Position numbers and translations under genes: made by a program
Part shown: positions 10,828 to 36,689 of the stretch, piece after piece
Numbering within the stretch: position 1 is the stretch's first letter
How the letters are laid out: each line of letters opens with the position of its first letter
Notes under the pieces: model-generated
What the model was told of the DNA's origin: nothing
What the model saw: only the letters and a program-made list of their open reading frames with translations
The model's database searches: none
Assembly: GCA_024710965.1 (NCBI GenBank)
Contig: JANJTU010000314.1
Coordinates: forward strand, 25,222 to 65,221
DNA length: 40,000 nt
From: Thauera sp.
Lineage (GTDB): Bacteria; Pseudomonadota; Gammaproteobacteria; Burkholderiales; Rhodocyclaceae
Direction: 5' to 3'

Positions 10828-10844
10828 GCGCGGTCGGCGCGCTC
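10826..10844. terminator. Hairpin spanning both stop codons of convergent genes
   Basis: GAGCGCG (10826-10832), loop GTCGG, CGCGCTC (10838-10844). This is a perfect 7-bp stem. It overlaps the TGA of the hydrolase-like gene and the TGA of the FRG gene. No U-tract. Confidence 0.35.
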
Positions 10845-11658: not shown

Positions 11659-11685
11659 GCATTCCCCCTGGCTCACCGGCCCCTC

Positions 11686-11730
11686 GCCTGCCGCACCCTG
11701 GCCTGCCGCACCCTGGCCTGCCGCGCCCCC
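11686..11730. repeat. 15-bp tandem repeat GCCTGCCGCACCCTG (2 perfect copies plus 1 degenerate)
   Basis: Copies at 11686-11700 and 11701-11715 are identical. 11716-11730 (GCCTGCCGCGCCCCC) matches 12/15. The repeat lies between the reductase stop (11751) and the FRG ATG (11658). Confidence 0.85.
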
Positions 11731-11750
11731 GTCCGCCGCGCCCCACCCGC

Positions 11751-12722: not shown

Positions 12723-12821
12723 CGCTGCGGCCCCGTCCGCCACGCGGACGGCGCCGTGAATCCGTGAGCCCCGGCCGCGGCCGGCGGCGCGAGGCGGACA
12801 GTGCCCCGCGCCGCGCGCCGC

Positions 12822-22545: not shown

Positions 22546-23319
22546 TCACACCGTGGTCCGGGCTGCCTTGGGCAGGTAGTGCAGCACCTTCTTCTCGATC
22601 AGGATCACCGCCGCGTAGGCGGCAATGCCGATCACCGTGAGGCCGGTGATGGCGACGAAGACGCCGGCGGTGTTGCCCTGCCCTTCGGAGGCGACGAGCA
22701 GGAAGCCGAGGCCGAGGTTGCCGCCGACGAGCTCGCCGACGGTGACGCCGATCACCGCCAGCGTCGAGGCGATGCGCAGGCCGGAGAACAGGTTCGGCAG
22801 CGCCGAGGGGAACTCGAGCAGGGTGAAGATCTGCCAGCGCGTGGCGTTGAGCGTGCGCACCAGGTTCACCATGTCCGGATCGACGGTGCGGATCGCGGCG
22901 AGCACGTTGATCATCACCGGGAAGAACACGATCAGGATCGCGACCAGGATCTTCGGGTAGATCGTGTAGCCGAGCCACATCACGAACAGCGGCGCGAAGG
23001 CGACCTTGGGCGCGATCTGCAGGGCGAGGATGTAGGGCGACAGCACCGCCTCGGCGGTCGGCGACAGGCCGAGCGCGACGCCGACCGCGATGCCCAGCAG
23101 CGAGCCGAGCACGAAGCCGAGGAAGACCTCCACCGCGGTGATGCCGGTGTGGTGGAGGAGCTGGCTTTCGGTCCACATCCGCGCGCCTTCCGCGACGGTG
23201 CTGGTGAAGGTCGGGAAGATGTACTCGGGCAGGCCGATCCAGCCCGGCGCCCACTGCCACAGGATCAGGGTCAGGGCGAGCAGCGCGGCGCTGCCCCACA
23301 GCGTGGAAGAGTTGTTCAT
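22546..23319 (-). CDS. ABC transporter permease (NitT/TauT aliphatic-sulfonate/nitrate/taurine-type)
   Basis: About six hydrophobic segments and an EAA-like loop (TVDPDMVNLVRTLNATRWQIFTLLEFPSALPNLFSGLRIA). Confidence 0.9.
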   Translation of the reverse strand: MNNSSTLWGSAALLALTLILWQWAPGWIGLPEYIFPTFTSTVAEGARMWTESQLLHHTGITAVEVFLGFVLGSLLGIAVGVALGLSPTAEAVLSPYILALQIAPKVAFAPLFVMWLGYTIYPKILVAILIVFFPVMINVLAAIRTVDPDMVNLVRTLNATRWQIFTLLEFPSALPNLFSGLRIASTLAVIGVTVGELVGGNLGLGFLLVASEGQGNTAGVFVAITGLTVIGIAAYAAVILIEKKVLHYLPKAARTTV

Positions 23320-23338
23320 GATCTGGCGCGTCCTGCGA

Positions 23339-24331
23339 TCACTGTGCGGCTTGCACGAACTGGTTGGTGTAAAGCTCGTCGAGCGGCGTCGCGCGCGTGA
23401 CGATGCCCTCGGCGAGGTAGAAGTCCTGCACCGCCTTCAGGCGTTCGGCGTCGATCAGGCCGAGCGTCGGCTGCCCCGGATAGACATGCTTGCCATAGAG
23501 CTCGAAGGTCGCGACGAGCGCGGCTTCCTTGCCCTGGTAGGCGGGCACGGCGGCGGCGAAGGCCTTCGCGGCGGCGGCCGGGTCGTCCATGACGTCCTTC
23601 ATGCCGTGCAGCGTCGCCTGGACGAGCTTGCGCAGCAGCTCGGGCTGCTTCGCGATCGCCTCGTCCGAGGCGAGGATCGCCTGCGCCATGCTCTTGAACT
23701 GCTGCTCGGCCGGCAGCAGGTGGATGTCGCCGCCCGCCTCCCGCGCGCTGACGACCCAGTCGGGCACGCCCGCCATCGCCGCGACCTGGCCGCCGGCGAG
23801 CATCTGCCACACGCCGGCGGGGCCGGAGGCCTGCACCGCGACCTTCTGCTTGTCGAGGCCGGCGAGCTTGAGCGAGCCGAGCAGCGCGTAGTAGGTGGTG
23901 TCGGCGTAGGACATCACCGTCATCGTCTTGCCGGCGAGGTCGGCGACGTTGTTGACGCCGGAGGCCTTGGTCGCCGCGATCATCGTCAGCGAGCCGCCGC
24001 CGAGCACCGCGACCGCGCGCACCGGCACGCCATTGGCGCGGACGATGATCGGCGTGTCGCCGATCGCACCACCGACGATGGCGTTGCCCGAACCGATCTG
24101 CTTGGCGACATCGACGCCACCGCGCGCGGCGACGAAGGTCACGTTGAGGCCGGCGGCGTCGTAGTAGCCGTTCTGCTTGGCGACGATCCAGGGCGCGAAC
24201 GCGGGCAGGGTCGGCGGCGCCGGCAGCAGGTAGGTGACGTCTTCCTTGGCGAGCGCCGCGTCGGGCAGCAGCGCCATCAGGCTCGCCGCGGCGAGGGCGG
24301 CGCGGGCGAACTTGCGCAGGGGGATGCTCAT
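23339..24331 (-). CDS. Periplasmic ABC substrate-binding protein (NMT1/THI5-like, NitT/TauT family)
   Basis: Signal peptide MSIPLRKFARAALAAASLMALLPDAALA. The body resembles NMT1-like binding proteins. AGGAGA lies upstream of the ATG at 24331. Confidence 0.85.
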   Translation of the reverse strand: MSIPLRKFARAALAAASLMALLPDAALAKEDVTYLLPAPPTLPAFAPWIVAKQNGYYDAAGLNVTFVAARGGVDVAKQIGSGNAIVGGAIGDTPIIVRANGVPVRAVAVLGGGSLTMIAATKASGVNNVADLAGKTMTVMSYADTTYYALLGSLKLAGLDKQKVAVQASGPAGVWQMLAGGQVAAMAGVPDWVVSAREAGGDIHLLPAEQQFKSMAQAILASDEAIAKQPELLRKLVQATLHGMKDVMDDPAAAAKAFAAAVPAYQGKEAALVATFELYGKHVYPGQPTLGLIDAERLKAVQDFYLAEGIVTRATPLDELYTNQFVQAAQ

Positions 24332-24371
24332 GCTTGTCTCCTGTGGGGTGTCTTTATGTCTTGTCCGGCGT

Positions 24372-24426
24372 GTTCAGTGGCCGTTCAGTGGCCGTTCAGT
24401 GGCCACTCAGTGGCCACTCAGTGGCC
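24372..24426. repeat. 11-bp tandem repeat, 5 units (3x GTTCAGTGGCC, 2x ACTCAGTGGCC)
   Basis: Read directly at 24372-24382, 24383-24393, 24394-24404, 24405-24415 and 24416-24426. The last unit contains the ATPase stop codon (24418-24420) and its final Gly-His codons. Confidence 0.9.
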
Positions 24427-25296
24427 ATCGAGGCCGTCCTGGCCGACCCGCAGCAGCTCCATCAGGCGGCTCACCAGGGGGCCGACTTCGGGCAGCTTGC
24501 GGCGCTCGAGCGGGTTGTTGCGATGCGGCAGCGGCACCGTGATCTCCTCGATGATGGTGCCGGGGCGGTGGCTCATGACCAGCAGGCGGTCGGAGAGCGC
24601 GATCGCCTCGACGAGGTCGTGGGTGATGAAGAGCGCGGTCTTCTTCTGCTCGTGGAGCATCTGCGCCAGATCCTGCTGCAGCACCATCTTGGTCTGCGCG
24701 TCGAGCGCCGAGAACGGCTCGTCGAGCAGCAGCACCTGCGGGTCGGTGGCGAGCGTGCGCGCGAGCGCGGCGCGCTGGCGCATGCCACCGGAGAGCTGAT
24801 AGGGGTAGTGGTTCTCGAAGCCGGCGAGGTGGCACTTCGCGATCAGCTCGAGGGCGATCTGGCGGCGGCGCTGGCGGGCGACGCCGTCGATCTCGAGGCC
24901 GAGCTCGACGTTCTCGCGGATCGTGCGCCAGGGCATCAGCAGATCCTTCTGCAGCATGAAGGAGGTCTGCTTCACCGGCCGGGTGACGCGCTCCTTGCCG
25001 ACATAGACTTCGCCCTCGCTTGGCAGGTAGAGCCCGGCGCCCATGTTCAGCAGCGTGCTCTTGCCGCAGCCGCTGGGGCCGACGATGGAGACGACCTCGC
25101 CGCGGCGGATCTGGATGTTCAGGTGGCGCACCGCGTAGGGCGGGTTCGGCTCGCGCTTCGAGGGGAAGCGCTTGCTCACGTTGCGGAACTCGATCTGGAT
25201 TTCCTCCAGCGCTTTCTCGGCGCACGCGGGCGGCGTCGTGCCGATGGCGGCGACGCGCTTGATGGTGCTGGTACTGCGGGTTTCGGTCTCGATCAC
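24418..25296 (-). CDS. ABC transporter ATP-binding protein
   Basis: Walker A GPSGCGKST, signature LSGGMRQR, Walker B LLLDEPFSALD and H-loop FITHD. I prefer the GTG at 25296 (AGGAAA upstream) over the longer 339-aa ORF. Confidence 0.9.
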   Translation of the reverse strand: MIETETRSTSTIKRVAAIGTTPPACAEKALEEIQIEFRNVSKRFPSKREPNPPYAVRHLNIQIRRGEVVSIVGPSGCGKSTLLNMGAGLYLPSEGEVYVGKERVTRPVKQTSFMLQKDLLMPWRTIRENVELGLEIDGVARQRRRQIALELIAKCHLAGFENHYPYQLSGGMRQRAALARTLATDPQVLLLDEPFSALDAQTKMVLQQDLAQMLHEQKKTALFITHDLVEAIALSDRLLVMSHRPGTIIEEITVPLPHRNNPLERRKLPEVGPLVSRLMELLRVGQDGLDGH

Positions 25297-25402
25297 GGCT
25301 TTTCCTTGTACACGGCGGCGAGGTGGAGACGGGACGGGGCGCTGCCGCCCCACGGCTCCGACCGGCCACCGGGACGCATATGCGGCCCTGGCGAAGCAGG
25401 GG

Positions 25403-26266
25403 TCAGAAGTGGAACTCCAGGTTGAGCGTGGCGGCATCGGTGTCGACGCCGGGAATGCCGTGGTTGCCGAACTTGTTGCGCCACAGTTCGTAGCCGACCC
25501 CCATCAGGAAGGTATTCTTCCTGCCGAACGCCAGCTGGCCGACGTCGAGCATCAGGGCCGACCGGAACAGGGTCTCGCTGGCGGTCTCCTTGTTGAAATA
25601 ATCCTTGCCCTTCTTGCCGTTGTAGGCCAGAAAGCCCTGGTATTTCAGCGGCAGGCTGGCGAGCTGGAACGGAATCCCCCACGCCGCCTCGAGGCGCGCA
25701 TAGGGGTCGAAGCGGATGTCGGTGTTGAAGCCCGGCACCGTGCCGCAGGCCGGCAGGCCACAGTGGTTCCATTCCTGCGTGTACAGCAGGCTGACGTCGA
25801 GAAAGCCGGGCACGTCGAACTTGAAGGTGGGGCCGACGACGAGCATGCGCTTGCGCGGCGCGAAGGCGGAGTTCTTGGTCTGCAGGTCGAAGCCGGCGCT
25901 GATCGCGACGTCCTTCACCGGGCCGAAGGCGAGCGGCGCCGCGCGCAGCTTGCCGAGGTGAAGCTGGTGGCGATAGGCGAGGTAGAACTCGGTGGCGCCG
26001 TTGCTGCTGCCGTTGGCCGGGTCGGCGCTGTCGGAGTTCAGCACGTCGAGGTTGAAGAAGTTCTGCCCATAGGTGTAGCCGCCGACGTAGCTGAACTGGA
26101 CGATGTGCTTGCGCGTGTCTTCGCCGTTGCCGGGGTCGTGAAAATCCGTGCCGACGCGGTAGCCGATCAGGGCATCGGACCAGGTGGCGGCAGCAGCGGG
26201 CATCGACGCCATGGCGCCAAGGCCCAGCAGCACGGCGCAGGTAAGGTTCTTCGGATTGATTGCCAT
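25403..26266 (-). CDS. Outer-membrane beta-barrel channel (Tsx/OmpK-like guess)
   Basis: Signal peptide MAINPKNLTCAVLLGLGAMASMPAAA, alternating amphipathic strands rich in Tyr/Gly/Asn, and a C-terminal ...LNLEFHF ending in Phe. AGGAGA lies upstream of the ATG at 26266. The subfamily assignment is a guess. Confidence 0.7.
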   Translation of the reverse strand: MAINPKNLTCAVLLGLGAMASMPAAAATWSDALIGYRVGTDFHDPGNGEDTRKHIVQFSYVGGYTYGQNFFNLDVLNSDSADPANGSSNGATEFYLAYRHQLHLGKLRAAPLAFGPVKDVAISAGFDLQTKNSAFAPRKRMLVVGPTFKFDVPGFLDVSLLYTQEWNHCGLPACGTVPGFNTDIRFDPYARLEAAWGIPFQLASLPLKYQGFLAYNGKKGKDYFNKETASETLFRSALMLDVGQLAFGRKNTFLMGVGYELWRNKFGNHGIPGVDTDAATLNLEFHF

Positions 26267-26351
26267 CGTCTCCTCTCTCGGGCGGGACCGGCATTCTTCC
26301 GATGCCGGTTCGGCAGCCTTGTCGCTGCCGGTTGTTTTACCTATGAAACGT

Positions 26352-26369
26352 CGTTCCCTTTTTGGAACG
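26352..26369. promoter_or_regulatory. Inverted repeat CGTTCC-N6-GGAACG in the divergent control region
   Basis: CGTTCC (26352-26357), CTTTTT, GGAACG (26364-26369). It shares the CGTTCCCT and TGGAAC words with the 26592-26628 site. Confidence 0.3.
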
Positions 26370-26610
26370 AAGCGAACCGTACTCGCCGATCTGCGCCATC
26401 AGCAATAAGGGTTTACCCCTATTCAAGATCGGATGCAGATGAGGCATGCGCGCAAGCGTGTCGCCGACCGCCCGGTCGCGACCCGCACCTGGCCAAGCCC
26501 GGCATCGAATTTCTGGATCACATCAATCAACAGGCGTCAATCCGTAATTTCCCTAATTACGCCGCCTCATCATGCGCACCTAAGGTTGCCGCGTTCCCTA
26601 TATAACTCAC

Positions 26611-26628
26611 TGTTTCATATATGGAACA
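26611..26628. promoter_or_regulatory. 18-bp near-palindrome TGTTTCATATATGGAACA (candidate operator)
   Basis: 8 of 9 positions pair (TGTT.CATA/TATG.AACA). It lies in the most AT-rich part of the 26267-26773 intergenic region, between the divergent outer-membrane/ABC operon and the cupin gene. Confidence 0.35.
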
Positions 26629-26773
26629 TCAACTGCCTGCCGGCGCCGCCGACGTCTTCCTGGCGCCGGACGCACCGCAACCCGGCCCAGGAAGCCAGGC
26701 CGCCCGCTGCGCGTGACGTCGGCGACGGACGCGCAAGAACGAGAGGCCAGACCAATACACGTGGAGGATCACG

Positions 26774-27319
26774 ATGAACGAGCACATCGCAGGACTGGCG
26801 GCCGACGCCAGCCATACCCTTGAACGCCCGAGCGGCGCGTCATTCGACGAGTGGATGAACTCGCGCTGCGTGCTGCGCTCGACGCGCAGGTACGACTGGG
26901 ATGCGCTGAAGTTCCAGACCGAGGTCGACCCGACCTACGCGCGGGCGCAGATGCGCTATGTGGGCACCGGCGGCACCGGCGTAAACAGCGACGCCAACGT
27001 CGTCCCGGCCGTCCATTTCACCTTCTCGACGATGAAGATTCCGGTCGGCCACACCGGCCCGCTGCACCTGCACACCGATACCGAGGAGATCTTCTTCGTG
27101 CTGCGCGGCAAGGTGAAGGTGTTCTGCGAGTCGCTCGAAGGCGAGCAGTGGGAGACCGTCGTCGGCGAGCGCGACCTGATCTCCGTGCCGCCCGGCGTCT
27201 ATCGCGGCGAGCAGAACGTCGGCGACGAGGAAGCGCTGATGTGTGTCATGCTCGGCTCGCCCCGGCCGGTGACGCCGACCTACAAGCCCGGCGACCCGCT
27301 CGCCGCGATCAAGCGCTGA
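26774..27319 (+). CDS. Cupin-domain protein
   Basis: GGAGGA lies upstream of the ATG. Cupin motif 1: GHTGPLHLHTDTEEIFFVLRG (G-x5-HxH-x3-E-x6-G). Confidence 0.8.
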   Translation: MNEHIAGLAADASHTLERPSGASFDEWMNSRCVLRSTRRYDWDALKFQTEVDPTYARAQMRYVGTGGTGVNSDANVVPAVHFTFSTMKIPVGHTGPLHLHTDTEEIFFVLRGKVKVFCESLEGEQWETVVGERDLISVPPGVYRGEQNVGDEEALMCVMLGSPRPVTPTYKPGDPLAAIKR

Positions 27320-27456
27320 GCGGCGCGTCGCGGCCCACCCGAGTCGCGCCGGCGAGCCGGCAGCAAGACCCCGCCCCGCCCGGCCCGCCGGGCATGCCGC
27401 GCGGCGCGGCTGCCGGCCCCGCGCGGGCGCCCACAACCCGCCCACCGGAGGTGTCC

Positions 27457-28002
27457 ATGCCCATCCAGCCCTACCGCGACGTCGAGCCGGCACTCGCAGC
27501 CGGCGTCTATGTGCACCCGTCGGCACAGCTGATCGGCAACGTCGAGCTCGGCCGCGACTGCTCGATCTGGTGCAACAGCGTGCTGCGCGGCGACGTCAAC
27601 CGCATCGTCGTCGGCGCCTTCAGCAACATTCAGGACCTGTCGATGTGCCACGTCTCGCACCGGCACGCGGCGAAGCCCGACGGCTCGCCGCTCGTCATCG
27701 GCAGTTACGTCACCGTCGGCCATGGGGTGATCCTGCACGGCGGCACGATCGGCGACGCCTGCCTGATCGGCATGGGCTCGATCGTCATGGACGACGCCGT
27801 GATCGGGCCCGAGGTGATCCTCGGCGCGGGCAGCCTCGTGCCACCGGGCAAGGTCCTCGAAGGCGGCCATCTGTACGTCGGCCGCCCGGCGCTCGCGGTG
27901 CGTCCGCTGCGCGCCGACGAACGCGCGTACCTGCGCTACTCCGCCGAGCACTACGTCCGCCTCAAGGACGACTACCTCGCGCAGGCCGCGGGCGGGCGCT
28001 GA
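27457..28002 (+). CDS. Gamma-carbonic-anhydrase-like / left-handed beta-helix (hexapeptide) protein (YrdA/PaaY type)
   Basis: ATG at 27457 with GGAGG upstream. IWCNSVLRGDVNRIVVGAFSNIQDLSMCH...IGSYVTVGHGVILHGGTIGDACLIGMGSIVMDDAVIG shows hexapeptide repeats with the His ligand pattern. Confidence 0.85.
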   Translation: MPIQPYRDVEPALAAGVYVHPSAQLIGNVELGRDCSIWCNSVLRGDVNRIVVGAFSNIQDLSMCHVSHRHAAKPDGSPLVIGSYVTVGHGVILHGGTIGDACLIGMGSIVMDDAVIGPEVILGAGSLVPPGKVLEGGHLYVGRPALAVRPLRADERAYLRYSAEHYVRLKDDYLAQAAGGR

Positions 28003-28188
28003 GCGGCACCACCGGACTGCGGCGCGCCGGCGTGCGACGGCGGGCAAGTTTCGCGCGCGCGGGAATAAACGCCGGGCTGCAAACGTATACCTCCTTGCAG
28101 CCCGACCCCGCTGCCGACCCCACTGCCCGAACAAGGCGGCGCCGACCGCCGCCCGCCCGCGGCAGCCCCCAGCGCGAAAGGAACCCCG

Positions 28189-29193
28189 ATGAAGAAGATC
28201 ACCCCCGCCCTCGCCGCCTGCCTGGCGCTCGCCGCCACGCCGGCTCCGGCCGCCGATCCAGCCGCCGCCCCGGCGCCGGGCGCGACGCAGGTCGTCGACG
28301 CCCTCGAAGCCGCCTTCGGCGTCACGCCGGGCGAGCGCCGCAATCACACGAAGGGCAGCTGTGCGCGCGGCGAGTTCGTCGGCACGCCGGAGGCCGCGGC
28401 CTACTCGCGCTCGCTGCTCTTTTCCGGCACGCCGGTGCCGGTCATCGCCCGCTTCTCGCTCTCGGGCGGCAATCCGAAGGCGCCGGACACCGCCAGGAGC
28501 GGGCGCGGCATGGCTCTGCAGTTCCGCCTGCCCGACGGCGGCCTGCATCACATCACGATGCTCAACACGCCGATGTTCGGCGCGGCGCAGCCGCAGACCT
28601 TCCTCGACCTGATGCAGGCACTGCGGCCGGACCCGGCCACCGGCAAGCCCGACCCGGAGCGGATGAAGGCCTTCCGCGCCAGCCATCCGGACAGCCTCGC
28701 GCAGGCCGACTTCCTCGCCAGCAACAACCCGCCGGCGAGCTACAGCAGCAGCTCGTACTGGGGCATCCACACCTTCAGGTTCATCGACCGGGACGGCAAG
28801 GTGACGCCGGTGCGCTGGCGCTTCGTGCCGCGCGACGGCGACAAGCGCCTGAGCGATGCGGAACTGCGGACGGCCGGCGCCAACTTTCTCGAGCAGGCCC
28901 TGATCGCGCGCACGCAGCAGGGCCCGGTGGAATGGGACATGATGGTCTCGATCGGCCGGCCGGGCGACCCCGAGGACGATCCGACCCGGCTCTGGCCCGA
29001 CGACCGCGAGCTGATCAAGGCCGGGACGCTGCGCATCACCGCCGCCCGCGCGCAGAAGGGCGCCGAATGCGAGCCGATCAACTTCGACCCGCTGGTGATG
29101 GCCGACGGCATCGCGCCGAGCGACGACCCGGTGCTCCGCTTCCGCTCCCCGGCCTACGCGGTGTCCTTCGGCAGGCGCGCGAGCGGACAGTAG
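28189..29193 (+). CDS. Periplasmic catalase-related (small, catalase-core-like) heme protein
   Basis: Signal peptide MKKITPALAACLALAATPAPAA. RRNHTKGSCARGEF parallels the catalase distal-His block. VIARFSLSGGNPKAPDTARSGRGMALQF parallels the VRFSTV...RDPRGFA block. At 334 aa it is far shorter than a canonical catalase. Confidence 0.75.
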   Translation: MKKITPALAACLALAATPAPAADPAAAPAPGATQVVDALEAAFGVTPGERRNHTKGSCARGEFVGTPEAAAYSRSLLFSGTPVPVIARFSLSGGNPKAPDTARSGRGMALQFRLPDGGLHHITMLNTPMFGAAQPQTFLDLMQALRPDPATGKPDPERMKAFRASHPDSLAQADFLASNNPPASYSSSSYWGIHTFRFIDRDGKVTPVRWRFVPRDGDKRLSDAELRTAGANFLEQALIARTQQGPVEWDMMVSIGRPGDPEDDPTRLWPDDRELIKAGTLRITAARAQKGAECEPINFDPLVMADGIAPSDDPVLRFRSPAYAVSFGRRASGQ

Positions 29194-29410
29194 CGTCGAC
29201 CGCCGCCGGGTGCTTGGCGGGCTGCTCGCCGGCCTGTCCGCATCGCTCCGGCAAGCGGCTTGGCGCTGCCTGCGAGCCCCGTCCGGCGCGGCGGACCGGC
29301 GCCCGCGCCTCCCGGCCGGCACTCGAGCGGATGAGGAACTTCGCTCGGTCCCTGGCTTCACAGACAAGTGTCGCCGCGGGTGAGCGGCCGCAGGCCGGCG
29401 AAGTGAAATC

Positions 29411-30052
29411 ATGGCGCAGGAAATCAACCGCTGGAGCAGCTCGGACGTCTTGCCGATGTTCCCGACCCTGGTGTGGAAGGTGCAGCTGCAGCCTGCACTT
29501 CACGCAGCGATCGACGCGAAGCTCCTCGCCGTGCTGGAGCAGCTGCGGCGCGACGAGGCGCCGCTCGGCGCCGGCGAGGGCTGGCAGTCGGAGCAAACGC
29601 TGCATCGACGGGCGGAATTCGGCGAGCTGGAGGCGTGCATCGGCACCCTGGCGAAGAGCGTGCTGCGCTTCCTGCGCGTGGGTTACGACGCACTCGAGAT
29701 CACCGGCTGCTGGGCCAACGTCCTGGCCCCGGGCGCCGCCCACCGGGTCCATGCGCACCCGAACAACTTCCTGAGCGGCGTCTATTACCTCCGCGCGCAG
29801 CCGGGCGCGGACACGATCAGTTTCCACGACCCCAGGCCCCAGACGGCCATCATCCGGCCACCGGTCGTGGAACTCACGGCCGAGAACACCGACCAGGTGG
29901 TGGTGAGCGTGCGCGGCGGCACCCTGCTGATGTTTCCGTCCTACCTGCCGCACTCGGTCGATTCCAACCGCAGCGACCAGGATCGGGTGAGCATCAGCTT
30001 CAACCTCATGTTCGCCGCCTTCGCCGAGAAGGTGAGCAAGCCCCAGTGGTGA
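29411..30052 (+). CDS. TIGR02466-like putative 2OG-Fe(II) oxygenase family protein
   Basis: HRVHAHPNNFLSGVYYL, and later FPSYLPHSV...RVSISFN, fit the 2OG-FeII_Oxy_5/TIGR02466 pattern as I recall it. Confidence 0.7.
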   Translation: MAQEINRWSSSDVLPMFPTLVWKVQLQPALHAAIDAKLLAVLEQLRRDEAPLGAGEGWQSEQTLHRRAEFGELEACIGTLAKSVLRFLRVGYDALEITGCWANVLAPGAAHRVHAHPNNFLSGVYYLRAQPGADTISFHDPRPQTAIIRPPVVELTAENTDQVVVSVRGGTLLMFPSYLPHSVDSNRSDQDRVSISFNLMFAAFAEKVSKPQW

Positions 30053-30094: not shown

Positions 30095-31513
30095 TCAACC
30101 TGGCGGCCCCGAGGGCGCCGCGGGGGATGCCGGCTTCGCCTTGCGCAAGCCGCACAAACTGGCCATGAAGCCGCCCTGCGGAAGGTTCGCGGCCTCGAAG
30201 CGCCCGCCGTGCAACTCCATGATGCGGGCGACGATTGCCAGACCAAGACCATTGCCTTCCACCGTGCTGTCGCGCCCGCGGTAGAAGCGCTCCCCGAGGC
30301 GGGCAAGCGTCGCCGCCGGCACGCCCGGGCCATCGTCGCGCACCACCAGCCGGACACGGTCTTCGCCCTCGGGGTCGAGCCCGACCACAATCCGGCTCTG
30401 CGCCGGCGTGTAACGCACGGCGTTATCGACCAGGTTCCGCAGCGCGATCTGCAGCAGATCGGGATCGCCGATCACGGCCGGGGCGGCGGGCGGCAAGCGG
30501 TGGGCGACGTCCTGCGTCGCGGCAGGGTTGGCGCTGCGCACGGCGTCGATCGCGCCCTCGACCAGCGCCCGCAGATCGACCGCACGCGGATTGGGGAGCA
30601 CGTTGAGCGGGTCCAGGCGCGCCAGGCGCAGCAACTGCTCGACAAGGCGGGTGGCGCGGTCCACGCCGCATTCGATCTGCAGCAGCGCCCGCTCCCGCTG
30701 GCGGGCATCGGCACTCAGGCGCGCGACCTGGGTTTGCACCTTGACTGCCGCGAGCGGCGTGCGCAGTTCGTGCGCGGCATCGGCGGTAAAGCGGCGCTCG
30801 TTCTCCAGCGCGCGGCCGACGCGCACCATCAGGCGATTGATCGCCAGCACCAGCGGCCCGACCTCGGTGGGTACGCTGCGCCCGGACAGCGGCGCGAGGT
30901 TGTCCGGGCTGCGGGACGACACCTCCCGCGCCAGGCGGATGAGCGGGCGCAGAGCCCGCACCACCGACAGGTATATCAGCAGCAGCAGCAGCGGCGCGAT
31001 GATCGCCAGCGGCAGAACGGTCTGTCCGGCCACTTCCAGTGCCGCGCGATCGCGCAGCCCGATGGACTGGGACACCTGCACGCGGTGGCGGCCGTCGGCC
31101 GACACCGCGTTCAACACCCGCCACGACTGATCCTTGCGCAGGATGTCGCTGTAGCCGGGAACACCGAGCACGGGCAGATCCGGCGCGCCGATCGAGCGCG
31201 CCAGGATCGTGCCATCGCCTCGGCCAATCTGGAATTCGAGCGGTGGTTCGTAGATGTTGTCGGCAGCCCCCCTGACGGTGACGAGCCGGCTGGCGAGTTC
31301 GCCCAGGTCGTCCTCGTTGTCGTGCAGGATGGCCAGCAGCAGGCGCCCCGTCTGCGCGAGGTTGCCGTCCATGAGTTCCTCGGCCTCGTGTTGCGCCTGG
31401 GTGTAGCTGAGCCAGCCGGTGAGCAACCACAGCAGCGACACCGCCGCGCACACCGCCGCCAGCAGGCGCCAGCGCAGCGACCGCACGCCCGCAGCGAGCG
31501 GCAGGCGCCTCAC
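30095..31513 (-). CDS. Sensor histidine kinase (two transmembrane segments, periplasmic sensor, HAMP, HisKA, HATPase; QseC/PmrB-like architecture)
   Basis: H-box FTADAAHELRTPL, N-box LRNLVDNAVRYTP, G-boxes VRDDGPGV and GLGLAIV. Hydrophobic segments at ~aa 15-35 and ~165-185. The GTG start overlaps the regulator stop (GTGA). Confidence 0.9.
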   Translation of the reverse strand: MRRLPLAAGVRSLRWRLLAAVCAAVSLLWLLTGWLSYTQAQHEAEELMDGNLAQTGRLLLAILHDNEDDLGELASRLVTVRGAADNIYEPPLEFQIGRGDGTILARSIGAPDLPVLGVPGYSDILRKDQSWRVLNAVSADGRHRVQVSQSIGLRDRAALEVAGQTVLPLAIIAPLLLLLIYLSVVRALRPLIRLAREVSSRSPDNLAPLSGRSVPTEVGPLVLAINRLMVRVGRALENERRFTADAAHELRTPLAAVKVQTQVARLSADARQRERALLQIECGVDRATRLVEQLLRLARLDPLNVLPNPRAVDLRALVEGAIDAVRSANPAATQDVAHRLPPAAPAVIGDPDLLQIALRNLVDNAVRYTPAQSRIVVGLDPEGEDRVRLVVRDDGPGVPAATLARLGERFYRGRDSTVEGNGLGLAIVARIMELHGGRFEAANLPQGGFMASLCGLRKAKPASPAAPSGPPG

Positions 31514-32172
31514 TCCCCGCCCCCCAGCTGGTAGCCAAAGCCGCGGACCGTGCGGATGAAATCGGCGCCCAGCTTCTTGCGCAGATGGTGGATGTAGACT
31601 TCCACCGTATTGCTGCCCCGCTCGTCGCCCCAGGGGTACAGACTTTCCTCCAGCTGGCTGCGGCTGCGGATGTGGTTGGGGTGACTGAGCAGGTCATACA
31701 GGACGGCGTACTCGCGCGCGGACAAGAGCACCTCGCGCTCCTCGCAGCTCACGCGCTTGGTGGCCGGATCGAGGGTCACGCCACGATGCTCGAGCACCGG
31801 GCGCGCAAGCCCGCTGGCGCGGCGCACCAGTGCCCGGATGCGCGCCTGCAGTTCGCCCAGATCGAAGGGTTTGCCGAGGTAGTCGTCGGCGCCGGCATCC
31901 AGCCCGCCGATCTTGTCCTCCGGCGTGTCACGCGCGGTCAGCACGAGCACCGGGGTGCGGTCGCCGCCGCGACGCGCCTCCTTCAGGACCGCCAGCCCAT
32001 CCTTGCCCGGCAGGCCGAGGTCGAGAATGCAGGCGTCGTAGCTGTGACCGGCGAGGGCGAGCAGGGCCTGTTCGCCGCTCCTCACCCAGTCGACGGCGTA
32101 GGTGGCCAGTTCCAGTCCGGCACGGATGCCATCGCCGAGCAGGGCGTCGTCTTCGACCAGCAGGATCCTCAA
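31510..32172 (-). CDS. OmpR/PhoB-family response regulator
   Basis: (M)RILLVEDD...DACILDLGLPGKDG...VLVLTARD...GADDYLGKPF receiver domain, plus a winged-helix C-terminus (VEVYIHHLRKKLG...IRTVRGFGYQL). The start is taken as the TTG at 32172, preceded by GGAAGGAAAG. The long 268-aa ORF overlaps the upstream gene. Confidence 0.9.
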   Translation of the reverse strand: MRILLVEDDALLGDGIRAGLELATYAVDWVRSGEQALLALAGHSYDACILDLGLPGKDGLAVLKEARRGGDRTPVLVLTARDTPEDKIGGLDAGADDYLGKPFDLGELQARIRALVRRASGLARPVLEHRGVTLDPATKRVSCEEREVLLSAREYAVLYDLLSHPNHIRSRSQLEESLYPWGDERGSNTVEVYIHHLRKKLGADFIRTVRGFGYQLGGGE

Positions 32173-32173
32173 A

Positions 32174-32836
32174 TCACTTTCCTTCCGTGGCGATACGGTC
32201 GAGCAGCGCCTGGATCTCCTCTCGCCGCCCCGCATCGGCGAGCTCACGACCGGGCCGCGCCGGCGCCCTGAGCGCCTTCTGCAGGAATTGACGCCCCTCC
32301 GGCACCCGGCCGGCATCGATCAGATACTCGCCGTAGAAGAAGTTCGGGTCAATCCCGTCGGGGTTGATGGCGAGCGACTTGCGGAAAAGCGCCTCGGCCC
32401 GCTCCTTGTCGCCGAAGCCGAGCGGCCAGCCCGGCACCTTGGCATAGAGCGTGGCCAGGCTCGTATAGGCCGAGCCATTGAGTGCCGTCTCGTTGAGCTT
32501 GAGGCTTTCCTCCAGCAGCTGCCGGGCCTCCTTGGCGAGCGACAGCGCCCCCAGCCCGCCGCGGGCACCGGCTTCGCTGGACAGCACGATACCCTCCCAG
32601 ACCAGCGCCGCCGCCAGGTTCGGATGGGACTCCGACAGCTGGCGGGCCTGCTCGGCGAGGTCCCGATAGAGCCGGGCCTGCTCCTTCTCGGGTTGGCGGT
32701 ACTTGATCTCGGCCCATTGGCGCTGGATCGGGAGCACGATTTCGTCCGGCGCACTCGGCTGGGCCGCGGCGGGAAGACCGAAACTGATGGCGGTGACTGC
32801 GAGCAGACTGCCAATGATGGCGGTACGGAATGACAT
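32174..32836 (-). CDS. Periplasmic TPR-like repeat protein
   Basis: ATG at 32836 preceded by AGGAGA (32845-32850). Signal peptide MSFRTAIIGSLLAVTAISFGLPAAA. The body has helical repeats with TPR-like A/L/Y/G spacing (GSAYTSLATLYAKV...AEALFRKSLAINP...FFYGEYLIDAG). The stop lies 1 nt before the regulator's TTG. Confidence 0.7.
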   Translation of the reverse strand: MSFRTAIIGSLLAVTAISFGLPAAAQPSAPDEIVLPIQRQWAEIKYRQPEKEQARLYRDLAEQARQLSESHPNLAAALVWEGIVLSSEAGARGGLGALSLAKEARQLLEESLKLNETALNGSAYTSLATLYAKVPGWPLGFGDKERAEALFRKSLAINPDGIDPNFFYGEYLIDAGRVPEGRQFLQKALRAPARPGRELADAGRREEIQALLDRIATEGK

Positions 32837-32869
32837 GGATGGGTTCTCCTTCATGCTTGGGCGGGGAAT

Positions 32870-33667
32870 TCAGAGCCCGTCCCGGCGCGATCGGGCGTGC
32901 TGTTTGATGGTGGGCAGCTTGCCGCGCAGCCCTTGGTCGATCAGGCCGGGCGCGACGCCGTTGAGCCAGGCGAACAGGCGCTCGGGGAAACCGATGTGGC
33001 GCTCGACCGCGCCGCGCTCGATCATGCGGACGATGCGTCGCGCAACCGCCTCCGGGCGATCGCTGGCGTTACCCAGCGCGTGGTTCAGGGCCCTCACGGC
33101 CGGCGAGTTGAGCGGCGTGTCGATCGCCCGGGGCGAGACGTGCAGCACTCGCACCGAGCTATCTGCCAGCTCGCGCCGAAGGGCCTGGGAGAAGGCGTGC
33201 AGGCCGCCCTTGGCCGCGGAGTAGGCCGCGAAGCCGGCGAACGGAAGGCTGCCGAAGGCCGAGCCGATGTTCACGACCAGCGCACTGCGCTGCGCGCGCA
33301 GCAAGGGCAGCAAGGCCTGCGTGAGGCGCACCGGCGCGGACAGGTTGGTGGCGATGACGTGCTCCACGGTGCCCCAGTCCTGCTCTTCCAGCAGGCCAAA
33401 GCCGCCCACTCCGGCGTTGTTGATCAAGGCGTTGGCACGAAATTCGCGCGCGGCGGCCGTAAGTCTGGCGACGCCCTCTTCGGTCGTGAGCTCGGTGGCG
33501 AGGGTGTGGTACTCGCAGCCCGCGGGCATGGCGATGCGCGCCAGACGCCCGCCGTCCCGGCCGCTGAGCAGCACAGCCGCGCCGGCGCGGGCGAGCTGGC
33601 TGGCCAGCGCCGCGCCCAGACCGCCGCTGGCGCCGGTGAGGACGATGCGCGCGTCCGTCAGGCGCAT
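32870..33667 (-). CDS. SDR-family oxidoreductase
   Basis: LTGASGGLGAAL (TGxxxGxG), NNAG and YSAAKGG (YxxxK). The start overlaps the upstream gene stop by 10 nt. Confidence 0.9.
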   Translation of the reverse strand: MRLTDARIVLTGASGGLGAALASQLARAGAAVLLSGRDGGRLARIAMPAGCEYHTLATELTTEEGVARLTAAAREFRANALINNAGVGGFGLLEEQDWGTVEHVIATNLSAPVRLTQALLPLLRAQRSALVVNIGSAFGSLPFAGFAAYSAAKGGLHAFSQALRRELADSSVRVLHVSPRAIDTPLNSPAVRALNHALGNASDRPEAVARRIVRMIERGAVERHIGFPERLFAWLNGVAPGLIDQGLRGKLPTIKQHARSRRDGL

Positions 33668-34320
33668 GGCACGGCCTCGGTCGGCAGCGCCCGGAACACG
33701 TCGCCATACAGCTTGAAGAACACGTTCGCCGCATGCCGCACATCGGCCTGGTCCTCCGCGGTCATGCGTTCCAGCAGACGCGCGAGATGGTGGACGTGCT
33801 CGCGGTCCAGCGTGCCGTGCGAGCGCAGGTAGGAGAACGCGCTGTGCGGCAGATCCAGCGCCTGCTGGATGCGGTCCGCCGCAGTCAGGGCCAGCGCCAC
33901 GCTGGTGCCTTCGAGCACGAACACCATGCCGAAGAAGGCTGCCGGATTGCCCCGGTTGATGAGGTCATAGGCATAGGCCACCATCACCTCGGCGGGCAAC
34001 TCGGGACGGCTGCGGCGCACGGCGTCCGCGTCGCCGCCCGCCGCCGCGATGTCGTTGAGGATCCATTGCTCATGGCCGATCTCCTCCTCGATGTACTCGG
34101 CCACGGCGCCGCGCAGCCAGGCCAGACGCTCGGGCAGGCGCCCGCCCAGGCTCATCAGCAGCGGGGTGGTGTGACGGACGTGGTGGTAGGCCTGGGCGAG
34201 AAAGGCGAGATAGGCTTCCCGGCTCGCCCGTCCTTCCAGGCAGGCGGCGATGATGGGCGAGCTCACCAGGTGCTGGCGCGCCGGCGCGGTCGCCTGCGTG
34301 AGTTCCTCATAGAAAGACAT
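33658..34320 (-). CDS. Heme-oxygenase-like fold protein (TenA/PqqC-like; iron-containing redox enzyme family candidate)
   Basis: The ATG at 34320 lies inside the artefactual 291-aa ORF. All-helical sequence with YLAFLAQAYHHVRHT...EYIEEEIGHEQW...FVLEGTS...YLRSHGTLDREH. The E..H and E-x2-H spacing is reminiscent of heme-oxygenase-like di-iron (HDO) enzymes and TenA-annotated proteins. The assignment is from memory. Confidence 0.7.
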   Translation of the reverse strand: MSFYEELTQATAPARQHLVSSPIIAACLEGRASREAYLAFLAQAYHHVRHTTPLLMSLGGRLPERLAWLRGAVAEYIEEEIGHEQWILNDIAAAGGDADAVRRSRPELPAEVMVAYAYDLINRGNPAAFFGMVFVLEGTSVALALTAADRIQQALDLPHSAFSYLRSHGTLDREHVHHLARLLERMTAEDQADVRHAANVFFKLYGDVFRALPTEAVPCA

Positions 34321-35794
34321 CGTGGGGGTCCTTTGAAGTGGGGGGTTCGGCATAGAGCGCGGCAATCCGTTCGGCATAGCGCTCGGCGATGCGGGCACGC
34401 ACCGGGCGGCCGTTGCCGGTCGCCAGGCCGTCGGCAGGGGAAAATGGCGCAACCACCGTCCAGTGCGCGAGGCGGGCGTAGTCCGGCAAGGAGGCGTTGA
34501 TGTCCGCAATGCGCGACGCAAGGGCGCTGGCATCGGCGCCGGCCGCGGGCACGAGGAGCGCGCTCAGCGCCGGGCGGCCGTCGCCGACCACGACTGCCTG
34601 CGCGATGAGCGGCTCGGCCAACAGCAGGGCTTCGATCCATTCGGGCGAGACATTCCGGCCGAACGAGGTGATGAGCAGGTTGCCCCGCCGGCCATCGAGG
34701 TTCAGGTGGCCGCGCGCATCGAGGTGGCCGAGATCGCCCGTCGCGAACTCGGCCGCAGCGGCCGCCGGTGCGCCGACGTAGCCGAGGAAGGCGCGGGTGC
34801 TGACGCGCACCTCGCCGTCCGCGATGCGCAGTTGCGCGTGTCGCAAGGGGGCGCCCGCGTCGTCACCATCGTCCCCGGGCAGGTTCAGGCACACCACCGA
34901 ACCGGCCTCGGTCAGGCCGTAGCCCTGATAGGCCGGAATGGCGCGCGCGCGCGCCTGCACGATCAGTCCGGGCGCCACGCGTGCGCCACCGACGGCGACG
35001 AAGCGCAGCCCTGGAGCGGCCTGACGCCCGGTCGCGCTCAGCCACGCCGCCCATGCCTTGAGCAGCTCGGGCACCAGGATCAGGCTCGACGCGGCGCTTT
35101 CGCGCACCGTCCTATCCAGGCACGCCGGGTCGAAGCCCGCCGCGCCGCGCCAGCCGATCGCCTCGAGCGGCCGCAGATGGACGGCAATGCCCCGCAACAG
35201 CGGCGCATACACGCCGGCCACGTTCTCCAGCAGCAGCGCGAGCGGCAGTGCCGAGAGATGGCTCGCCAGCGGCACGTCGAGCAGTCGCGCCCCCACCGCG
35301 CGCGCGGTATCCATCAGGCCCGCGTGCGCGAGACACACCCCCTTGGGGGTGCCGGTGCTGCCGGAGGTGAAGGAGATCTTCGTCGTGCCGGGCGGCAGAG
35401 GTGCCGCATCGACGACGCGGCGCATCCAGTGCAGCCCCTGCCAGCGCGCCGTGACGCAGAAGCCGAGATCCAGCGCGCCGATGCGTTCGGGCTGATCGGT
35501 GATGACGGTATCGGCGCCGCTGCGCCCGAGCGCGTGACGCAACTGGGCCGGGGTGAAGAAGCCCGGCAGCGGCAGGTGAACCTTGCCGGCGACCTGGCTG
35601 CCGATGTCTGCCAGCACCCACGCGGGGCTGTTGTCCGCCAGCACGCCGATCACCCGGCTTTCGGCCAGGAGTTCCTGCAGGCGCAGGAGTTCGGCCCGCA
35701 GCTCGCCTGCGCGCCAGCAACGCTGCGCCGAGAGCAGCATGGGGGTGTCCGCCGGATGCCGCGCAAACTCGTCGAGCCAGGAGAACTCAGCCAC
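34307..35794 (-). CDS. AMP-binding (adenylate-forming, acyl-CoA-synthetase-like) enzyme
   Basis: ISFTSGSTGTPKGV (A3 core motif), GYGLTEAG (A5) and ATGDLG (A7). GTG start at 35794. It overlaps the upstream gene by 8 nt and the downstream gene by 14 nt. Confidence 0.9.
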   Translation of the reverse strand: MAEFSWLDEFARHPADTPMLLSAQRCWRAGELRAELLRLQELLAESRVIGVLADNSPAWVLADIGSQVAGKVHLPLPGFFTPAQLRHALGRSGADTVITDQPERIGALDLGFCVTARWQGLHWMRRVVDAAPLPPGTTKISFTSGSTGTPKGVCLAHAGLMDTARAVGARLLDVPLASHLSALPLALLLENVAGVYAPLLRGIAVHLRPLEAIGWRGAAGFDPACLDRTVRESAASSLILVPELLKAWAAWLSATGRQAAPGLRFVAVGGARVAPGLIVQARARAIPAYQGYGLTEAGSVVCLNLPGDDGDDAGAPLRHAQLRIADGEVRVSTRAFLGYVGAPAAAAAEFATGDLGHLDARGHLNLDGRRGNLLITSFGRNVSPEWIEALLLAEPLIAQAVVVGDGRPALSALLVPAAGADASALASRIADINASLPDYARLAHWTVVAPFSPADGLATGNGRPVRARIAERYAERIAALYAEPPTSKDPHDVFL

Positions 35795-36389
35795 GCCACG
35801 CCCCCCTCTCCAGGGCGAGGCCGACCTTCCCTGCGACGACGACCGGCTTCGTTTCGTAGTAGCGCCCCCACGCCCGCGCCTGTTCTCCCAGGCGCAAGGG
35901 GTCGGCCGGCGCGAGCGCCAGCAGCGGCAGGCCCAGGCGGCGGAACAGGCCGATCAGCTCACTCGTCGCGGTGAAAGCCACCCATTCGAAGCCCAGCCGA
36001 TGCAGGTGCGCGGCCAGGCAGAGAATCACGTCCATGCTGCTGCCGCGACGCTCCGCCGCCAGGTTGCCCACCTCGACAATGCGCGCCCGCGGCACGGGCT
36101 GGCCGGCCAGCCGGCTGACTGCCGCCTCGACCGGCACATCCAGGTAGTTCTCCAGCAGCAAGCCGTCGTCGACCGCACTGCGCCAACCCACCGCCGCCAC
36201 GATGCGCGGCTCGTGCTCGAGCAGCATCAGGTTCGGCGCAAACGCCGGCACGTCGGCAGCGTATGCATGCCGGAAGATGGCGCGGATGAAGTGCTCGGCC
36301 TCCTCGCGGCGAGGATGTCCCGCCACGACATGGCGCACGCTCGGCCGACGATGCGATGCGGAAAGTGTGCGTTGAAGCGCGCCCGACAT
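35787..36389 (-). CDS. Thermostable-hemolysin-family (T_hemolysin-like, probable acyltransferase fold) protein
   Basis: ~200 aa. EAEHFIRAIFRHAYAADVPAFAPNLMLLE...IVEVGNLAAERRGSSMDVILCLAAHLHRLGFEWVAFTATSELIGLFRRLG resembles proteins annotated as thermostable hemolysin in proteobacteria, by my recollection only. Start ATG 36389 preferred; TTG 36419 is possible. Confidence 0.65.
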   Translation of the reverse strand: MSGALQRTLSASHRRPSVRHVVAGHPRREEAEHFIRAIFRHAYAADVPAFAPNLMLLEHEPRIVAAVGWRSAVDDGLLLENYLDVPVEAAVSRLAGQPVPRARIVEVGNLAAERRGSSMDVILCLAAHLHRLGFEWVAFTATSELIGLFRRLGLPLLALAPADPLRLGEQARAWGRYYETKPVVVAGKVGLALERGAWRG

Positions 36390-36570
36390 GATGACCCTTG
36401 GGAAACGATGTGTCGCCAAGGTACGGGGCGCGGATTAAGTTGAGCTTAAGCGCGCTGTCCGGCGTGCTCGCCGTGCATTGGCCGGCCCCATCTGCGCGGC
36501 CGCCACGGCGCGGCAGGCGCCGGGCTGGCGGGGCCGGCCGCTGCCGAGCCGGTCGTTACGAAGTGAAAAT

Positions 36571-36633
36571 GTTGCACCGCATATAGCACCAACCCATAGA
36601 TATACCTTATAGTTGCATTGGGTGCTCACACAA
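36571..36633. promoter_or_regulatory. AT-rich divergent promoter/operator region
   Basis: This is the lowest-GC stretch of the locus. Minus-strand sigma70-like pair: TTGTGT (36633-36628), 16 nt, TATAAG (36611-36606). Overlapping plus-strand -10-like TATAGT (36608-36613). Inverted repeat AGCACC (36585-36590) / GGTGCT (36621-36626). Direct repeat GTTGCA (36571-36576 and 36612-36617). Confidence 0.35.
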
Positions 36634-36689
36634 TTCGGTGTGGCAGGTGTATGCGATGGTCGGGCCGCCACGCAGCTTCTGCACGACCT

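Follow-up and report, generated by a model that had tools for sequence, protein, structure and literature searches.

A conserved operon linking a T_hemolysin-family protein to a PmrA/QseB-type two-component system: a candidate pathway for an acylated small molecule

The window analyzed here, a 40,000-nucleotide stretch of a Thauera sp. contig (JANJTU010000314.1), encompasses on its minus strand a block of seven tightly packed genes that starts with a gene of the T_hemolysin family and ends with genes for a response regulator and a sensor histidine kinase. The best explanation we can offer for this operon, in which our confidence and our doubt are about equal, is that it is driven by its own regulator and makes an N-acylated amphiphile that is bound by a TPR protein in the periplasm. 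The features of the operon, starting from the promoter, are as follows.

36434 to 36450, minus strand: PmrA/QseB-type box, CTTAAG-CTCAA-CTTAAT, 45–61 nt upstream of the thl ATG
35787 to 36389, minus strand: thl, T_hemolysin family, 200 amino acids, no signal peptide; predicted LuxI/FeeM-fold acyltransferase
34307 to 35794, minus strand: amp, ANL-superfamily adenylating or acyl-CoA-ligase-like enzyme (CoA, coenzyme A), 495 amino acids
33658 to 34320, minus strand: hox, heme-oxygenase-like dimetal oxidase (HDO), 220 amino acids
32870 to 33667, minus strand: sdr, short-chain dehydrogenase/reductase (SDR), 265 amino acids
32174 to 32836, minus strand: tpr, secreted TatT/BstC-like TPR protein, 220 amino acids; predicted binder of a hydrophobic ligand in the periplasm
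31510 to 32172, minus strand: rr, OmpR-family response regulator, QseB/PmrA-like, with Response_reg and Trans_reg_C domains, 220 amino acids, TTG start
30095 to 31513, minus strand: kin, sensor histidine kinase, QseC/PmrB-like, with 2CSK_N, HisKA and HATPase_c domains, 472 amino acids

Gene order, conservation and promoter box

All seven open reading frames (ORFs) are present between 30095 and 36389, with a G+C content at third codon positions (GC3) of 0.84–0.90 in the coding frames; the G+C content of the window is 72%. The initial annotation had described these genes as a translationally coupled operon, and all of the junctions hold on re-measurement: thl and amp overlap by 8 nt, amp and hox by 14 nt, hox and sdr by 10 nt, and rr and kin share a GTGA overlap, with tpr and rr separated by 1 nt and rr beginning with TTG at 32172. 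The spacing between sdr and tpr is 33 nt if tpr starts at the ATG at 32836, which is directly preceded by AAGGAGA, or 15 nt if the alternative upstream ATG at 32854 is used; we prefer the former because the orthologues are 220 amino acids long. The outer coordinate 36419 corresponds to a TTG-extended form of the thl frame, and the likely start is the ATG at 36389 because it gives a protein of 200 amino acids that matches the orthologues. Within the operon, the coding strand shows no terminator-like site, the sole such site being on the non-coding strand. A sigma-70 consensus scan detected no promoter, a result that is uninformative for an activator-dependent promoter at 72% GC. On this layout, the best explanation appears to be that the seven genes form one transcription unit, and this belongs to the evenly balanced reading given above.

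A genome scan anchored on thl yielded 80 loci from Rhodocyclales, Nitrosomonadales and Burkholderiales, and synteny was counted in the 56 betaproteobacterial loci with at least 8 kb of sequence after thl. The two-component genes and tpr had been expected to accompany the enzyme genes across genomes, and this is the case in 48 of these loci, which contain all seven genes in the same order. With no terminator-like site on the coding strand of the operon and this degree of synteny, the arrangement is not a chance one. The expectation fails for the two-component genes in six loci from Polaromonas, Rhodoferax and other Burkholderiales, where only the five-gene core, thl-amp-hox-sdr-tpr, is present, with no cognate regulator or kinase within 10 kb. 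One further locus has neither the two-component genes nor tpr, and one has thl alone.

The same layout is kept in distant T_hemolysin clades (about 40–55% identity). The complete seven-gene order recurs in one locus each of Photobacterium (sp. DA100) and Aeromonas (A. caviae), where identity to the window proteins is 27–59%; in Variovorax paradoxus, a regulator gene and a 2CSK_N kinase gene lie convergently after the five genes, and on a plasmid of Citrobacter freundii the five-gene core stands by itself. The T_hemolysin family as a whole comprises about 2,080 clusters at 50% identity, and most hosts of the thl loci are free-living bacteria of sludge or fresh water, for example Accumulibacter, Thauera, Sulfuritalea and Polaromonas.

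In Vibrio parahaemolyticus, VP1729 is the T_hemolysin protein (the founding δ-VPH), VP1731 is an iron-containing redox enzyme and VP1735 is a qseC-type kinase, with STRING linking VP1729 and VP1731 to VP1735 (PMC10469919). Thus, the δ-VPH locus VP1729–VP1735 appears to be the same cluster, VP1730 and VP1732–1734 being assigned to it from their numbering. In Pseudoalteromonas (P. carrageenovora), QseBC, an acyl-CoA synthetase and a hemolysin have been noted as a 'potential virulence cluster' (PMC6262041). The novelty suggested by the initial annotation therefore stands only in part: the cluster surrounds the founding δ-VPH gene and has been mentioned in passing (PMC10469919, PMC6262041), whereas the literature on thermostable hemolysin clusters yielded no functional study of the system, and no characterized system with this composition was found.

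The box upstream of thl is the sole match to YTTAAK-N5-YTTAAK in the window, with 0.00 expected by chance, and it equals the verified PmrA box of Salmonella (CTTAAG, 5 bp, xTTAAT; PMC3973317). Of 78 related loci, 75 have a TTAA-N7-TTAA repeat between positions −95 and −40 (mode −61), compared with 0.005 expected per locus, and the consensus of the box over these loci is cTTAAG-N5-tTTAA(G/T). The window and each of six 16–18-kb loci, those of Photobacterium and Aeromonas among them, contain a single such repeat, always just upstream of thl. Given that it is retained in the five-gene loci without adjacent two-component genes, control by a PmrA-type regulator seems to be a conserved property of the operon. 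The obvious candidate for the box-binding regulator is the operon's own rr and, because this candidate is encoded at the 3' end of the operon, the unit is probably autoregulated.

The enzymes and the periplasmic TPR protein

Each of the seven proteins falls into the family that had been expected from the initial annotation, as judged by matches to Pfam and NCBIfam models. The thl product matches the T_hemolysin profile (PF12261) over positions 3–171 of 174 (E = 3.5e-54, 183.7 bits, cut-off 27). An AlphaFold2 model of this protein, built with 20 homologues (pLDDT 87, pTM 0.83), has the GNAT/LuxI-like fold that had been anticipated: the best Foldseek matches in the PDB are MesI, LasI, BjaI, TofI, RpaI and FeeM (E = 7e-7 to 2e-5), and general GNATs rank below the LuxI-type synthases and FeeM. 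The similarity to the LuxI-type and FeeM structures corresponds to TMq values of 0.49–0.58 at 12–14% identity (for FeeM, 2g0b, E = 2e-5 and TMq 0.49–0.53), and MesI, BjaI and RpaI among these matches are of the CoA-dependent kind. The model thus shares the fold of the LuxI-type acyl-homoserine lactone (AHL) synthases and that of FeeM/OlsB, and by sequence the protein belongs to neither family. In hmmscan at E ≤ 10, PF12261 was the only match, with no hit to Autoind_synth (PF00765) or FeeM/OlsB (PF13444), and a PDB sequence-profile search detected no LuxI-type protein (best E = 0.19). We therefore rejected the assignment of thl to the LuxI or FeeM family. No LuxR-type gene was found among the operon genes or the Pfam-tested flanking ORFs, the partners of thl being the OmpR-type regulator and the 2CSK_N kinase. 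As modeled, the fold of thl is that of an enzyme making a signal or a lipid, not that of a toxin; the fold by itself does not single out signalling because it is shared by lipid synthases of the FeeM/OlsB type.

The amp product contains an AMP-binding domain (PF00501; 9.6e-38, 130.4 bits) and AMP-binding_C_3 (PF23562), with conserved core motifs A3 (FTSGSTGTPKG) and A5 (GYGLTE). The sdr product matches adh_short (PF00106; 4.6e-39) and the NCBIfam model PRK09072 (2.6e-91, 305.9 bits, cut-off 238), and its cofactor motif LTGASGGLG and catalytic YSAAK are present and conserved. The hox product, a member of Haem_oxygenas_2 (PF14518; 1.2e-28, 100.5 bits, cut-off 28.9), is the most conserved of the seven, with a mean identity of 76% to the window protein over 65 orthologues, and in an alignment of 66 sequences half of its positions reach at least 95% conservation. 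The di-iron site predicted for this protein is borne out at the level of residues, the full ExxH…E…HxxxDxxH ligand set being kept: E80xxH83, E137 and H168xxxD172xxH175 are each at least 95% conserved in the 66 orthologues. We take this pattern to be the three-histidine, three-carboxylate ligand set of the di-iron HDOs UndA, SznF and CADD. The nearest PDB sequence (3dde, 7.8e-18) is a structural-genomics protein without a known function, and the score against the CADD model is 25.5 bits (cut-off 200). Enzymes of the HDO superfamily have repeatedly been found to perform unusual oxidative C-C or C-N chemistry.

Two genomes, those of Thauera sp. CAU 1555 and Pseudothauera lacus, have amp and hox, which are separate frames in the window, fused in frame into a single uninterrupted protein of 723 amino acids (10596–12767 in locus L004, and the same offsets in L005). 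Some Sulfuritalea loci contain, between thl and amp, a radical-SAM gene and a 151-amino-acid ORF without a Pfam match (insertions at 11140–12105 in L013 and 10930–12117 in L025), in the manner of biosynthetic clusters that acquire further tailoring steps. On a plasmid of Streptomyces sp. NBC_00536 (L097, 8010–11237), a T_hemolysin and AMP-binding pair followed by a TauD/TfdA dioxygenase lies within a type II polyketide synthase cluster that also encodes ketosynthases, cyclases and MFS exporters. Because of the amp-hox fusions, the Streptomyces polyketide pairing and the Sulfuritalea radical-SAM insertion, we favor an enzyme over a toxin for thl. The proposal that the enzymes produce an acyl-derived small molecule is upheld as far as a pathway is concerned: the folds, motifs, fusions and polyketide pairing support the view that the four enzymes look like a small-molecule pathway, with the acyl-derived nature of the product being a conjecture.

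By Pfam, the tpr product is a TPR_19 protein, with weak similarity to TAtT (PF16811; 17.1 bits, cut-off 26.5) and BstC (NF045602; 25.6 bits, cut-off 350); many of its orthologues have precomputed PF16811 matches and bear the NCBI name 'TRAP transporter TatT component family protein'. In its AlphaFold2 model (pLDDT 88), residues 4–26 are disordered, and the signal-peptide region is 20% conserved compared with 73% for the mature part. The first three Foldseek ranks in the PDB are occupied by BstC (7t1s, two chains) and the TPAT-family protein 8g52, with TatT (3u64) at rank 33; the fold is shared with BstC 7t1s, TPAT 8g52/8g53 and TatT 3u64, all at TMq 0.62–0.65 (0.65 for TatT). Given that there is no lipobox cysteine, the protein is probably soluble in the periplasm rather than lipid-anchored. 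No genes for the TRAP partners TatP/Q/M or for BstA/BstB were found in the tested window flanks or among the called genes of relatives. From these matches, we predict that the protein binds a hydrophobic ligand in the periplasm and is not a generic scaffold.

The initial annotation had grouped tpr with the sensing part of the operon, and this grouping does not survive: tpr travels with the enzymes, not with the sensor. It is kept with the enzyme genes where the two-component genes are absent, namely, in six Burkholderiales loci, on the Citrobacter plasmid and in locus L089, so that it appears to be a part of the synthesis and handling core. A role of tpr as an accessory of the kinase was rejected on the same grounds.

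The two-component pair and the genes around the operon

The rr product scores 234.6 bits (1.1e-69) against the QseB model (cut-off 345) and 229.8 bits (2.8e-68) against the PmrA model (cut-off 330); the corresponding values for kin are 318.7 bits (5e-95) against QseC (cut-off 475) and 193.2 bits against PmrB (cut-off 314). By these NCBI equivalog thresholds, rr and kin are relatives, not orthologues, of PmrAB and QseBC. The kinase has two transmembrane segments and a periplasmic domain of about 125 amino acids (residues 39–165), in which the mean identity is 62%, compared with 56% in the catalytic domain. Just after the first transmembrane segment, at residues ~40–50, the start of the periplasmic domain contains a semi-conserved H-E-x-x-E-x-x-D motif, which, in our view, resembles the HExxE iron-sensing motif of PmrB and which may be a general feature of 2CSK_N domains.

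Characterized relatives of the PmrA/QseB type respond to Fe3+, to pH, or to catecholamines with iron, and the inputs of the known relatives extend over metals, pH, and host and other signals. A stress response on the pmrCAB pattern would suit such a regulator and box just as well as product sensing. In Variovorax paradoxus (L093, 12321–15117), the two-component genes form a unit of their own beside a VIT-family (iron/manganese transport) gene, and an iron transporter is present in the plasmid cluster of P. carrageenovora (PMC6262041). Both neighbors are hints of a link between the sensor and iron. Thauera sp. CAU 1555 has, immediately upstream of thl (L004, 7369–9721), a second unit that consists of a PepSY protein, an OmpR-type regulator and a kinase, in addition to the operon's own two-component pair.

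Pfam searches of the flanking ORFs show that the flanks of the operon are unrelated in content and differ in orientation. The neighboring features are as follows.

Beyond thl, divergent, plus strand: Na_H_antiport_3 gene
36620 to 36672, plus strand: nhaA-I riboswitch (Rfam RF03057)
29411 to 30052, convergent with kin: 2OG-FeII_Oxy_5 gene, the downstream neighbor
28189 to 29193, convergent, in the downstream flank: catalase-like gene
26774 to 27319, in the downstream flank: cupin gene
22546 to 25437, minus strand: NMT1/ABC transporter set

The riboswitch (50.5 bits, gathering score 37) lies directly upstream of the Na_H_antiport_3 gene, and the start listed for the antiporter ORF, 36618, is too early because the riboswitch occupies 36620–36672. 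A link between the operon and the antiporter was rejected, given that this neighbor occurs only in near-identical contigs and has its own nhaA-I riboswitch. None of the genes of the downstream flank (22546–30052) recurs beside the operon in relatives. For the operon and its flanks, covering the window and the called genes of related loci, we found no transporter, beta-oxidation or ring-cleavage genes that would accompany it.

Alternative readings and known systems

Under the explanation that we prefer, a QseB/PmrA-type regulator would bind the CTTAAG-N5-CTTAAT box and switch the operon on, such that rr and kin, as the last genes, drive their own expression. The ANL enzyme would then activate a carboxylic acid as an adenylate or a CoA thioester, and thl would move the acyl group to an amine acceptor, with an amino acid or an S-adenosylmethionine-like donor as possibilities. 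The hox and sdr products would tailor the resulting molecule by oxidation, possibly including decarboxylation or desaturation, and by keto/alcohol redox chemistry. The amphiphilic amide would finally reach the periplasm, where the TatT/BstC-like TPR protein might bind or ferry it. What the sequences show of this scheme is the gene order and coupling, the families and folds, the conserved catalytic and metal residues, the box and the synteny; we infer in which sequence the reactions run, to which chemical class the product belongs, that tpr binds a ligand and which regulator occupies the box.

Several observations weigh against it. The operon has no gene for a carrier protein, a thioesterase or an exporter, which leaves no account of how the product would reach the periplasm. 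The likeness of thl to LuxI and FeeM is at the level of the fold, with no Pfam match to either. The C-terminal motif of amp, judged by eye, is TGNGRP, with GR (arginine) in place of the GK expected at A10. A stand-alone T_hemolysin gene on plasmid p1 of Photobacterium damselae (L096, 7917–8510) retains the box, CTTAAG-N5-CTTAAG at −63, without any of the partner enzymes. The recombinant T_hemolysin-family protein of V. fluvialis, δVFH, has been described as a secreted, lipid-binding cytotoxin (PMC11033176, 2024).

The input of the kinase is a separate question. A cue from outside, of the envelope, metal or pH type and following a pmrCAB-like logic, is close to an even prospect. In its favor are the PmrA/QseB ancestry, the pmrCAB-like layout, the iron-related neighbors and the loci in which the sensor has moved away. 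Sensing of the operon's own product, that is, autoinduction, is a tentative proposal that we do not consider any more likely than an external cue. In its fuller form, the enzymes would make a diffusible, lipid-like autoinducer that tpr presents to the QseC-like kinase, with the regulator feeding back via the box. Such a closed loop, which would amount to a new system of the quorum-sensing type, we regard as unlikely on balance, even though several observations agree with it: thl is structurally closest to autoinducer synthases; the layout, with the synthase first and the sensor last, is that of agrBDCA; tpr and rr lie 1 nt apart, in a gene order that persists from Rhodocyclales through to Vibrionaceae and Aeromonas; the periplasmic domain of kin is as conserved as the catalytic domain, as expected for a conserved ligand; and the box is kept where the two-component genes are not adjacent. 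However, nothing links the product to the kinase, and tpr remains beside the enzyme genes in loci that lack the two-component pair. Moreover, the fold of thl is equally that of FeeM/OlsB-type lipid synthases. The Fe3+, pH and catecholamine responses of the PmrA/QseB-type relatives mentioned above and the iron-related neighbors, that is, the Variovorax VIT gene and the P. carrageenovora iron transporter, also count against the loop. Still broader, and about as unlikely, is the possibility that the T_hemolysin operon serves Beta- and Gammaproteobacteria widely as an undescribed means of cell-cell signalling. A new class of lipid-like autoinducer would then come from the LuxI-fold synthase together with the dedicated acyl-CoA ligase, a di-iron HDO and the SDR, be captured in the periplasm by the TatT/BstC-like protein, be sensed by a QseC-type kinase and feed back positively via the box. 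If this were the case, the 35-year-old haemolysin phenotype of δ-VPH would be a by-product of a signal molecule, and the 'QseC' of this operon in Vibrio and Aeromonas would have that molecule as its true ligand.

The direction of the pathway could also be reversed, with tpr and kin detecting an exogenous hydrophobic acid that the ligase activates, the HDO and the SDR oxidize and the GNAT conjugates, in a process of uptake, catabolism or detoxification. TatT-family proteins are partners of TRAP uptake systems, which fits the naming of the tpr orthologues, activation of an acid followed by oxidation is a catabolic logic too, and substrate-induced two-component control is common. This alternative is nevertheless improbable, given the lack of transporter, beta-oxidation and ring-cleavage genes in the operon and its flanks, the presence of the thl and ligase pair in a polyketide biosynthetic cluster and the haemolytic phenotype reported for clones of the family, for which the single thl gene suffices and which points to production. 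Least probable of all, and very much so, seems a virulence cluster in the literal sense, in which thl itself would be a membrane-damaging toxin under QseBC control and the other genes accessory or unrelated. Recombinant δVFH has indeed been reported to be cytotoxic, to bind lipids and to occur in supernatants (PMC11033176), the cluster has been so read in P. carrageenovora (PMC6262041), and the boxed thl on the P. damselae plasmid stands alone. Yet the window thl lacks a signal peptide and is modeled with confidence as a GNAT enzyme fold, and it is translationally coupled to an acyl-activating enzyme; the hosts are mostly free-living sludge and freshwater bacteria, and four co-conserved enzymes with intact active sites would be left without an explanation. 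The cytotoxicity of the recombinant protein could come from bound amphiphilic products.

If thl is indeed an acyltransferase, the 'hemolysin' family that is reported as a virulence factor in surveys of Vibrio and Aeromonas would be reassigned to the head of a conserved pathway. The operon further offers HDO chemistry to discover, hox being its most conserved gene and fused to the acyl-activating partner in some genomes. The compact circuit of box, regulator, kinase and periplasmic binder makes the input of a QseC/PmrB-type kinase, an endogenous lipid-like product or an environmental cue, directly testable. Given that the hosts include phosphate-accumulating and denitrifying bacteria of wastewater (Accumulibacter, Thauera, Dechloromonas) along with aquatic pathogens, any signal or envelope lipid common to them would matter for the biology of flocs as well as for virulence.

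Several known systems resemble parts of the operon. Work on the δ-VPH locus and its equivalents has dealt with the first gene alone, viewed as a protein toxin, and has not considered the cluster as a unit of biosynthesis or regulation. The CoA-dependent LuxI synthases RpaI, BjaI and MesI use acyl-CoA, and the logic of an acyl-activating enzyme combined with a GNAT-fold synthase is common to them and the operon; unlike LuxI/LuxR, the operon has a two-component system as the partner and additional HDO, SDR and TPR genes. Synthases of the FeeM/OlsB type are known from the Fee cluster of soil environmental DNA and from ornithine-lipid synthesis; clones that carry them yield amphiphiles and show antibacterial or haemolytic phenotypes, and in the Fee cluster, too, an N-acyl amino acid undergoes oxidative tailoring. 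In contrast to these, thl is a member of another sequence family, its acyl donor is probably supplied by a dedicated ligase and not drawn from acyl-ACP (acyl carrier protein), and tailoring would fall to an HDO and an SDR instead of the enzymes of the Fee cluster. Although UndA, BesC, CADD and SznF share with hox a Pfam family or a fold and the ExxH…E…HxxxDxxH pattern of ligands, the similarity is remote. Compared with TatT and with BstC, a component of the Methylococcus sterol transporter, tpr is shorter (220 amino acids) and has no TRAP, RND or substrate-binding partners.

The DSF (RpfF/B/C/G), CqsA/CqsS and PhcBSR systems are similar to the operon in logic only, and none of the seven proteins contains the crotonase domain of RpfF, the PLP (pyridoxal phosphate)-dependent domain of CqsA or the methyltransferase domain of PhcB. 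As in pmrCAB (eptA-pmrA-pmrB), the enzyme genes come first and the PmrA-type pair last, with a PmrA box in the promoter. The enzymes themselves are unrelated to those of pmrCAB and of almEFG, which is controlled by VprAB/CarRS, there being no EptA, AlmEFG or carrier protein in the operon; almEFG nevertheless resembles the operon in that an adenylating enzyme and an acyltransferase work together there, for the modification of a lipid (lipid A). In agrBDCA, an autoregulated operon places the synthase first and the sensor last. By analogy, the layout of the T_hemolysin operon may be viewed as that of a biosynthetic operon joined to an autoregulated two-component system, for which pmrCAB and agrBDCA are precedents.

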